DNA of 64,000 nucleotides. It comes from Octopus vulgaris (taxonomy: Eukaryota). A model generated the notes under the pieces. The model saw only the letters and a program-made list of their open reading frames with translations, was not told the origin of the DNA and did not search any database. The first letter of the stretch is position 1, and each line of letters opens with the position of its first letter. A program made the position numbers and the translations under genes. Shown piece after piece: positions 14,053-20,926 of the stretch. Where the stretch lies: assembly GCA_951406725.2 (NCBI GenBank), contig OX597820.1, positions 85,002,001-85,066,000 of the forward strand, read 5' to 3'.

Positions 14053-14589
14053 ATGTATATATAAAGATGTGTGCTTGTGTGTACACACACGCAGAGTAAT
14101 AAAAAAAAACGTAACCTAGTGTTTAAGGTCTTGGACTTCATAGATCATAAGGTCTTCTGAACTTTTAAACAAGGGCAGTCATCATTGCGTTCTTGAACAA
14201 GACATGTCATGTAACGTTGCGTCTGTATACACAAGTAGGAATATGCATTGGCCGAGTACTGGGCCAGCTCCTTCTTTACTCTTACACCTGTCAAATCCAT
14301 GTGTTCCTTGCGGGAATGCTCAGGAATGTGGGGAAGGTCTGTGTCGAAAAAGGCTCCCTGATCATTTTGAGAGGAAATGGGATGAGCTGCATGGTCGTAT
14401 TCGCATGCAAATGTCTCATACACGCACATGATTGCCATATATTTATAAATGATATAAACCTCACCATTAAAAAACCGACAAAGGAAATAAGGTAGTGTTG
14501 ATTGACACAGAATACTACAAAAAATTAATACTCTCCATGTTGGAAAATAATATTTACTATGAGAAGATAGTACAATACAACCAACAGAA

Positions 14590-14990
14590 GATACTTAAAA
14601 CTTATCCTCCTTACTTTAAATACATGCCAAGGGCCTCGCGAACGAGGACTTCTTGAAATCAGATCAATACTAATCAAAAGGCATTACCAAATATCATTAA
14701 TAAATGATGGCGTTAAACGGATTAAGAACATATATATACGAACATTAAAGGAAGTCAACCGAAATACTAAACCAGAATTTAAAATACTCCAATGCATCTC
14801 CACACATAATCCTAGAAACAACAAAGCCCTCAAAATTATCATCCAAAATCTACCCATCTTCACAGGAGGTAACACAATAAAGAAAATTTTAGGCTCACAG
14901 CAAAATGCAACCTAAACCATTGAAAAAAATATTAACCAGCGCAAGACTATATCCATTAACAACAGAACCAAAAGTGAAAATATTACACGT
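14590..14990 (+). mobile_element. Penelope-like RT thumb/linker fragment
   Basis: LLEIRSILIKRHY...ISTHNPRNNKALKIIIQNLPI...PKPLKKILTSARL; homologous to 41361-41733. Confidence 0.8.
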
Positions 14991-15047
14991 AATCTTTTTA
15001 CTCAAGGACTAGTAGACCTCACACCGTTCAGTATTCGGTTTGCATCC

Positions 15048-15086
15048 AAAGCAATGATTAGTAATTTTACGAAACCGGTATGCTTT
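15048..15086 (+). ncRNA. Minimal type I hammerhead with A3-U8 core pair
   Basis: stem I AAAGCA/TGCTTT; core ATGATTA; stem II GTA-attt-TAC; GAAAC CG GT; GUA triplet; directly downstream of the PLE fragment. Confidence 0.75.
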
Positions 15087-15326
15087 TGAATCTCTTTATC
15101 AATTCACTATAATGACTTTTATTACTTTTATTCCTACCTCAGTTCATCTAATTGTATATATCTAACGTTACTTTTCTTAAAATCCTTTAATTATTTTATT
15201 TCCAATGTGCATTTTAGCTTACTTTTCTTCTTATTTTCCCCTTACATTTCCACGTGTAGTTTCTAGTTCCTTTTGGTAACATATTTATATTATATACAAA
15301 TATATACATCTATATATGTATATAGG

Positions 15327-18957: not shown

Positions 18958-19009
<52 letters not shown>

Positions 19010-19603
19010 ATAAAAAAAGGGTGAAATATAATTAATTTGATAAAATTAATAAATTTCACGTAGTAGTTTTATCGGTATGGAAAATACCATATTTGCTAAG
19101 GATTATATTAATTATAAGAAAGGGTTAATTGCAACAAGGTGCTCAAAACCACATACCGAAAATATTATAAATGGCAGCCAAATAGGTCACCATTTCCCCT
19201 ACTAGTAAAAAAGTCTCCACAAACAAACAGGATTTGCAACCCGTATATGGCAAAGAGAAAGAAAATAACGTAATCACAGCCTATTTGGATTAATTATAGA
19301 CGAAAATTCGTTTCTGGATTAGAACCGTAGGTTCATTTCCTTGTCAATATAATATTTCCTATAAATCTAGAAATGCTAGGGGAAGAAAACTCACCCACTA
19401 CACCGGCTCGAAAGTGACATCGAACGATATAATGGTCTGTCAGCATCACTACATTTATATAGACAGGCGAAATCGTATCTCCCTCCAAAATTACCACGTG
19501 AGTTGCAAAAACATTGTCAAGTTTCGCAGATTTATTGTATGGGAGTAATAGCGTACAATATACAAATATATTTGCTAAAGATTATATTAATTATAATAAA
19601 GGG

Positions 19604-19606
<3 letters not shown>
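19010..19606 (-). mobile_element. Non-coding terminally redundant unit (PLE repeat or retrozyme-like)
   Basis: 39-bp direct repeat at 19089-19127 and 19568-19606 (2 mismatches), hammerhead inside, (TA)n on both flanks. Confidence 0.6.
19293..19353 (-). ncRNA. Type I hammerhead with U3-A8 core pair
   Basis: minus strand: ATTATA-TTGACAA-GGA aat GAACC tac GGTTC taa TCC-a-GAAA-CGAA tt TTCG-TC-TATAAT; GUC triplet. Confidence 0.75.
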
Positions 19607-19668
<62 letters not shown>

Positions 19669-19770: not shown

Positions 19771-20926
19771 CTAGCAGAGATGCCCGGCGTTGCTTGGGAT
19801 TAAAAGGGCATAATTTGTATATATATTATAGTTGCGTTAAAAAAAGGTGATACGGGAAAGTACAGCATTGACTACAAATCTTTCGTGAAGTGAATGGTGA
19901 GCTAATTCAACTAAGCGACATGTCATGCATCCGTTTGGAGAATTCCAGTACCTAACCTGTCAGGGAAAATTGGGGGTGGGGTTATGTGGTTTTTGAACAC
20001 ACCGAAAAGCTGTCAGTGGATATAATCTCCATTGCGGCGTCTGTGCTACATCTAACATGACCCATTGTCTGAAGTTTTGACACCTGATTCGGATTTGTTG
20101 GCGAACATCACTCACAAAGTAAATTTAGAGAAACTTTGGTTGTTCATTTGTGGGGAGCAGGTAACCAATAAGGTGACAGACTTGCCCTTGAGCTTTGAAC
20201 ATCGGCATCAATCCATGTTTAACTATCTCCTTAGATGCACCAAACGATATCATTTGAAATGCAAAGTTGTATAGTCTGATATTATTGAGAACACCCTTTA
20301 ATTGGATGGAAGTGCCTTCCAGAAGATCCGTAAGAGTTTGAAGAGAAGCAGGTAGTGCTGACAATCTTACCTTACCGCCTGAGCAGCACATGCAATTAGT
20401 TTTATTTCGAAAAGAATTATCATTTTTATAAGAATGGGATGGATCATATCTAAAAGCAGCTCTAAGATTTGTGAAGAAAGAATTTGCAATTGTTTTCTTT
20501 CTGAGACCTAGTCTATTGGACCGCTGTCTAATCATTAAAACTCTGTTTTAATGAATTAGTATTAAGTGCTACAGGATGCCTTTGTTGCTCTTGGGAACGT
20601 CTCACCTCACTTCTGTCTTGAGATTCTATTTGACGTGCTGCTCTTGAGAAAGTCTCATCTCTCTTCTCCTTTGAGACTCTCGCCTTCGGTTTTCTACAAT
20701 CTTCCTTGATTTATACTTGTTTCTGGAGAGATTATTTCCTTTTTCTTTGGTGGAATTTTTTTCAATATTATAAATAGCAAATTATGAACATAGAAAAATC
20801 ATAATTAATCTATATTTTTGCAATCAGTTGCATGTCTCTATTTTTGTATGCATTGTAAATTAACCAAATAGAAGCATATGTACGAAATGGTAATTTAACG
20901 GTAAATGCCACAGGCATTATTATAGA
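19771..20926 (-). mobile_element. Internally deleted Helitron with both termini
   Basis: 5' A|TCTATAATAAT at 20926; 3' CCCAAGCAACGCCGGG hairpin-like motif then CTAG|T at 19771; RepHel N-terminal coding relic inside. Confidence 0.88.
20125..20755 (-). pseudogene. Helitron RepHel N-terminal region relic
   Basis: PPKKKG start region; MCCSGGKV, NNIRLYNFAFQMISFGA and FKAQGQVCHLIGYLLP...PKFL*IYF motifs typical of RepHel. Confidence 0.88.

Follow-up and report, generated by a model that had tools for sequence, protein, structure and literature searches.

The window analysed here, a 64,000-nucleotide stretch of the Octopus vulgaris genome (contig OX597820.1, positions 85,002,001 to 85,066,000), carries on its minus strand a hammerhead ribozyme motif within a solo, non-coding copy of a ~560-nt repeat that sits between two (TA)n tracts. 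The features of this locus, in positions of the window, are as follows.

18979..19005, no strand: (TA)n tract that directly adjoins the repeat at its fixed 3' end (position ~291), from sequence, the same junction being seen in many copies
19007..19566, minus strand: whole ~560-nt unit of the likely retrozyme, circularly permuted, with a single hammerhead, from alignment to a tandem copy
19287..19359, minus strand: hammerhead plus outer stem I extension, from the fold and the family alignment
19293..19353, minus strand: type I hammerhead with core UUGACAA and a predicted cut after C19299, from sequence, descriptor scan and family covariation
19568..19606, minus strand: additional 39-nt segment, matching ~171-209 of the unit as numbered from the cleavage site, at the insertion's 5' edge, from alignment
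19605..19665, no strand: (TA)n tract, the target on the 5' side, from sequence

Numbered from the cleavage site, the unit in the window has both its start and its end near position 283-291; it is 91% identical over 574 columns to a tandem copy elsewhere in the genome (locus L007). With its single ribozyme this copy could be cut once and could not release a unit alone, and it is probably a dead end. A 140-aa frame also occurs in the window at 20125-20547 on the minus strand; it has no significant Pfam match, and we take it to resemble a Helitron Rep/helicase fragment.

An earlier note, made from this DNA alone, had placed a U3-A8 hammerhead on the minus strand at 19353-19293, and direct reading of the sequence confirms it. 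Three helices surround the core with stem I open, as in a type I hammerhead. Stem I has 6 bp (AUUAUA at 19353-19348 with UAUAAU at 19298-19293) and leads into the core U3 U4 G5 A6 C7 A8 A9 (19347-19341), where U3 (19347) and A8 (19342) form a Watson-Crick 3-8 pair. Stem II opens with GGA (19340-19338) paired to UCC (19318-19316), passes through a 3x3 internal loop (AAU/UAA) and ends in an apical GAACC/GGUUC helix with the loop UAC. The G12-A15.1 segment (GAAA) occupies 19314-19311, and C17 lies at 19299 in a GUC site, after which self-cleavage is predicted; G5, A6, A9, G12, A13, A14, A15.1-U16.1 and H17 are all present. The core departs from the consensus at two points, namely the U3-A8 pair and an additional A at 19315, which intervenes between C11.1 and G12 where the two adjoin directly in the type I consensus, and which is invariant in 28/28 aligned copies. 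For stem III the note had given ACGA(A)/(U)UCGU, of which ACGA/UCGU stands as 4 bp around a 4-nt loop (AUUU), while the fifth pair falls because only 2 nt would be left for its loop. Stem I also has an outer extension, absent from the note, which consists of a 3x3 loop (AAU/UAA) followed by GGA (19359-19357) paired with UCC (19289-19287), and in the 28 aligned copies this outer helix is 94% paired with one pair altered on both sides. The motif GGA-AAU ... UAA-UCC is common to stems I and II (19359-19287, minus strand) and is largely kept across subfamilies, and this twin motif could serve alternative pairing, a tertiary contact or a protein contact.

Taken alone, the 76-nt hammerhead fold is only modestly unusual (z -2.21, with 5/200 shuffles equally good), and a descriptor scan of the window, run without a shuffle control, gave two matches, this hammerhead and an A3-U8 motif at 15054. 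When the element alone was searched against Rfam no hammerhead match was found at E <= 10, and a search with the whole window gave, among the best 150 of 294 rows, microsatellite-driven miRNA matches only. The case for a hammerhead rests on the repeat family and not on the fold of a single copy.

This family is a non-coding, AT-rich repeat of ~560 nt, present in hundreds of copies in a microsatellite-rich genome of 2.8 Gb. A 201-nt query gave 748 candidates genome-wide, of which 40 were scored, and a 17-mer across the core has 169 exact matches genome-wide against 1 for a control pattern, the dispersal expected of a mobile element. In one array (locus L031) seven hammerheads are spaced 558-560 nt apart, so that each non-coding unit in the head-to-tail series carries a type I hammerhead of its own, the arrangement that defines a retrozyme, and one inverted truncated copy accompanies them. 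The monomer fold is well below that of shuffled sequences (z -4.25, 0/100 shuffles as good). The 3' ends fall at positions 186-195 or 282-299 from the cleavage site in 62 of 76 rows (overlapping loci kept), most of them running directly into (TA)n; the 5' ends are variable and often inverted, with 5'-truncated inverted copies present, and in many two-ended insertions one of each 3' end faces outward around variable 5' breaks. Family copies extend through the cleavage site, and the one in the window is a whole permuted unit, so the template would have been either circular or multimeric and uncut. A non-LTR retrozyme is the likely identity of the family. A separate array (L021/L022, G000:C10:27.05 Mb) is built of internally deleted units of ~265 nt that keep the hammerhead; both 3' end sites are gone from these units, and stems II and III carry mismatches.

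The window copy belongs to a lineage with a 7-nt core that has 244 matches genome-wide against 1 for the control. Among the first 100 listed of these 244, a hand count found U3 in 99, C3 in 0, A8 in 97 and G8 in 3, with U3 and A8 together in 96. A direct search for C3 in this lineage gave 1 non-hammerhead match versus 2 for the control, and 20 loci fetched as canonical look-alikes from 63 matches of a non-U3 pattern contained no C3 family member, 19 showing no relation to the family at the matched position and one, L060, being an inversion junction. Because U3 and A8 are near-fixed and the search for C3 stays at control level, the U3-A8 pair is inherited and does not reflect decay of the window copy. 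The note had argued for a covariant U3-A8 core in a repeat family as opposed to two chance transitions, and had held this family to be unrelated to the A3-U8 element; both claims are borne out, the latter by the absence of any sequence in common with the motif at ~15048-15088. Its proposed check, a look for canonical copies, came out in its favour within the 7-nt-core lineage, where none has C3, although C3-G8 relatives exist in separate sister subfamilies.

These sister subfamilies are ~72% identical to the 7-nt-core lineage and have one base more behind A9. Counted by hand over the first 100 listed of their 195 matches, U3-A8 was found in 47, U3·G8 in 42, C3-G8 in 8, C3-A8 in 2 and G3-G8 in 1, and exact C3-G8 copies number 14. 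A hand count of the other core positions in the same 100, found with a search pattern that left G5, A6 and A9 free, gave C4 in 22, G5 in 97, A6 in 100 and A9 in 99, so that positions 3, 4, 7, 8 and 9b vary while G5, A6 and A9 are kept; G12-A15.1 were among the anchors of another search, and their conservation is no independent evidence. In the 28 aligned copies, which are related and were hand-picked to span subfamilies, 97.4% of cells in the helices are paired and 6 pairs are altered on both sides, a level of pairing reached by 0/500 shuffles (counts that are not to be read as probabilities) and by slid controls only up to 45%. Pair 2.1-1.1, for example, is G-C in 19 copies and A-U in 9. Across the family, pairs of both stem I and stem II alter on both sides, and stem III, although variable in length, stays palindromic or nearly so.

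The same data bear on a reading in which the element is mobile while its hammerhead is crippled or dispensable, with copies spread from uncut tandem transcripts and odd cores that are products of decay, the 7-nt core having possibly arisen from UUGAUGAA by deletion of G8. Such a deletion could stand in place of compensatory change, and the alignment does place a one-base gap at G8. This reading would also accommodate the 42 U3·G8 and 22 C4 copies per 100 listed sister copies, the additional A in the core and the lack of any dip in read depth at that site in sequencing runs that are probably DNA, and it agrees with the available part of a 2026 preprint in which 8/9 Xenopus retrozyme dimers gave no cleavage in vitro (10.64898/2026.07.22.740005). 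We nevertheless consider it unlikely, given that G5, A6 and A9 are nearly invariant while their neighbours change, that stem I and II pairs change on both sides, that the first two stem III pairs are kept through many loop lengths, and that C3-A8 mismatches are few (2/100 listed). The inactivity of the Xenopus dimers, the departures of the core from the consensus and the U3·G8 and U4C relatives do count against our preferred explanation, a retrozyme with a working hammerhead.

The order in which the 3-8 pair changed was approached with a tree of 155 copies from which the core columns were left out (158 found, minus 2 too short and 1 duplicate). The tree is a ladder with C3-G8 copies at one end, U3·G8 copies in the middle and the 7-nt U3-A8 lineage, including the window copy, at the other end; the C3-G8 copies sit inside a 26-row group with a support of 99, and U3-A8 also arose several times inside the 8-nt group. 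Median end branches of 0.057 (C3-G8), 0.038 (U3·G8) and 0.018 (7-nt U3-A8 lineage) would favour a path from C-G through U·G to U-A, although uneven sampling affects them. A second abundant non-coding family was encountered (L180-L204, first seen at L066:3485-3795, minus strand), with 1,621 candidates that are 95-98% identical. It has a canonical CUGANGA hammerhead with a long stem II, shares both 3' ends and is 67% identical to the present family over the 3' part. Used as an outgroup in a tree of 97 rows whose bootstrap had not settled, this second family forms a long branch and attaches in an open fork among U3·G8 and not C3-G8 copies, so that this tree does not fix the order as C-G, U·G, U-A. 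The position of U·G between C-G and U-A nonetheless suggests a natural wobble route, which may have been taken in either direction. A bolder view is that a retrozyme lineage kept retrotransposing throughout a U·G passage between C-G and U-A, while also acquiring U4C and, to either side of the stem II junction, additional bases, so that the genome would preserve an ordered series of working cores. The conserved additional A and the two AAU/UAA loops would then be a new stabilising architecture under which such odd cores are tolerated; this is possible, though we lean against it.

The note had further held that stem III is long enough for possible monomeric cleavage, a claim that is weakened here, since the stem has 4 bp, is marginal, faces a competing GAAA/UUUC pairing and is shorter still among the youngest copies. 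In the window copy the hammerhead fold has -14.4 kcal/mol versus -14.9 kcal/mol for the fold that pairs GAAA with UUUC, and the pairing probability of stem III is 0.05-0.36 in five sequence contexts. Stem III of this copy is quasi-palindromic, with -1.4 kcal/mol alone and -10.1 kcal/mol as a homodimer, and that of the youngest subfamily, ACGAGUCGU, has a shorter loop, no fold alone and -9.6 kcal/mol as a dimer. From these models it is more likely that the family acts as dimers through stem III, and the window copy may have weak monomeric activity. True monomeric cleavage as an evolved property of the window subfamily, whose stem III has 4 bp, would fit the ability of ACGA-AUUU-UCGU to fold alone, a hammerhead fold within 0.5 kcal/mol of the minimum and coral retrozyme monomers that cleave well according to the consulted part of PMC7229834. 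The low pairing probability, the GAAA/UUUC competitor and the far more stable homodimer speak against this, as does a stem III loop whose length varies in the family and is less in the youngest copies, and we give the idea almost no credence.

No sequencing run that contains the element is recorded as RNA; two of them (X1 and X3, from one study) are guessed to be RNA. Aligned to one young monomer and taken without a silent control, assembled contigs from these two runs give it an even depth (34x and 46x) and include a head-to-tail joint, and in X1 two contigs jointly close a 560-nt cycle with the U3-A8 core unaltered. In two large runs that are probably DNA, cover drops steeply towards the 5' side, with no joint and no step at the cleavage site. 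The joint hints at circles or tandem transcripts, between which contigs cannot separate.

The window also contains, at 14471-15090 on the plus strand, a broken Neptune-type Penelope remnant ending in the A3-U8 hammerhead at ~15048-15088; a relative has a reverse transcriptase (RT) match, and the A3-U8 motif follows the frame in 5/29 other loci, with ~5,900 candidates genome-wide. Among 30 sampled GIY-YIG loci, 15 (one of them weak) have a minimal UUGAUAA hammerhead near a (TA)n end, and most of these belong to one Neptune-type family that includes 781-aa frames. That family (L241, L246 and related loci), with many such frames and (TA)n ends, carries its minimal U3-A8 hammerhead ~100-150 nt ahead of (TA)n and has two alternative 3' ends ~38 nt apart, and it is a candidate helper. 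Other Neptune-type families have an A3-U8 hammerhead (L255) or, as read by eye, a C3-G8-type one (L238, L038), and with U3-A8 this makes 3/4 of the Watson-Crick 3-8 pairs in this genome. The rarity that the note had ascribed to U3-A8 is thus not borne out, given these 15/30 loci and the ~1,300 Schistosoma motifs in Penelope elements reported in the part of PMC4209133 consulted.

Neptune-type Penelope elements probably move the octopus family in trans. Alternatively, an autonomous Penelope element with coding copies that escaped sampling might contain the unit as its pseudo-LTR or 3' end, the short copies being 5'-truncated insertions, as the inverted and tandem layout and the (TA)n targeting of the family equal those of autonomous elements and U3-A8 is known from Penelope pLTRs (PMC4209133, in part). 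This is very unlikely in view of the six consecutive full units in L031 that lack a coding insert. The proposed movement in trans has a difficulty of its own, in that none of 60 Penelope loci (30 via the window's Neptune remnant and 30 via PF01541, from ~6,000 candidates per search) yielded an autonomous partner sharing the 3' end; matches in L242 and L261 were ruled out as separate retrozyme copies nearby. As for the pseudo-LTR reading, a tblastn search with two Neptune frames against 689 kb of family loci matched 9 loci, of which the two read by eye (L038 and L018) proved to be separate insertions, and no RT plus GIY-YIG frame continuous with the repeat was found in the L031 array or in these two loci.

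The preferred explanation, in which we place fair confidence, is that the window holds a solo full-unit copy of a ~560-nt repeat in (TA)n, likely a non-LTR retrozyme with predicted GUC self-cleavage that would be mobilised by Neptune elements in trans. In such a system, tandem arrays would be transcribed, the hammerheads would cut after GUC, probably with stem III pairing between neighbouring units, and the units would be ligated or left multimeric. A Neptune-type RT and endonuclease would then nick (TA)n and prime at one of the two AT-rich sites, and copying across the junction would give permuted, truncated and inverted copies in new TA tracts.

As far as the consulted parts of the reports go, metazoan non-LTR retrozymes (Cervera & de la Pena 2020, PMC7229834; Li, Clavereau & Pollet 2026) likewise consist of AT-rich, non-coding units in tandem, each bearing a single type I hammerhead, occur as solo, dimer and multimer copies, have a structured monomer and a length range (51-972 bp) that includes the present one, and have been proposed to be mobilised by Penelope elements. 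The octopus family, as read here from sequence, differs from them in U3-A8, the extra A before G12, the long interrupted stem II, the two fixed 3' ends in (TA)n accompanied by inversions, and the U3·G8 and C3-G8 sister subfamilies. With the minimal hammerheads of Penelope pLTRs, Schistosoma Cercyon included (PMC4209133, same part), it has in common the U3-A8 covariation, G10.1-C11.1, a palindromic stem III suggesting dimers and, in the sister subfamilies, an extra base between 9 and 10.1, whereas the 6-bp stem I with its outer extension, the 3-4 bp stem III, the extra base between 11.1 and 12 in this lineage and the lack of an attached coding body set it apart. Natural core variants, as far as described by Perreault et al. 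(2011, PMC3088659), also include the change from C3-G8 to U3-A8 and U4C, the former reported from nature and described as active, the latter as tolerated in vivo, but they are not described to include the 11.1/12 insertion or a U3·G8 lineage as seen here. The Neptune clade, in the part of its description consulted (Craig et al. 2021, PMC8557442), shows the same (TA)n targets, partial tandems, inverted 5'-truncated copy and extra tail at one end only, but the present family is non-coding and its second end lies ~100 nt further, versus 30-40 nt in Neptune; no sequence in common with the sampled Neptune 3' ends was found. A literature search found no publication on this octopus family, although comparable motifs might occur in the alignments supplementing PMC4209133 and PMC7229834, and, among titles, none on an insertion between 11.1 and 12.

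The type of element and the U3-A8 pair are already known, and what is new is the series of C-G, U·G and U-A cores in related subfamilies; this series and the fixed extra A are the features that most deserve testing. These motifs escape the Rfam models, which means that genomes of this kind contain more hammerheads than are counted. With C3-G8, U3·G8 and U3-A8 subfamilies in one lineage, the crossing of a core pair by way of a wobble in a replicating RNA becomes testable, and the same series of subfamilies bears on whether retrozymes need an active ribozyme.
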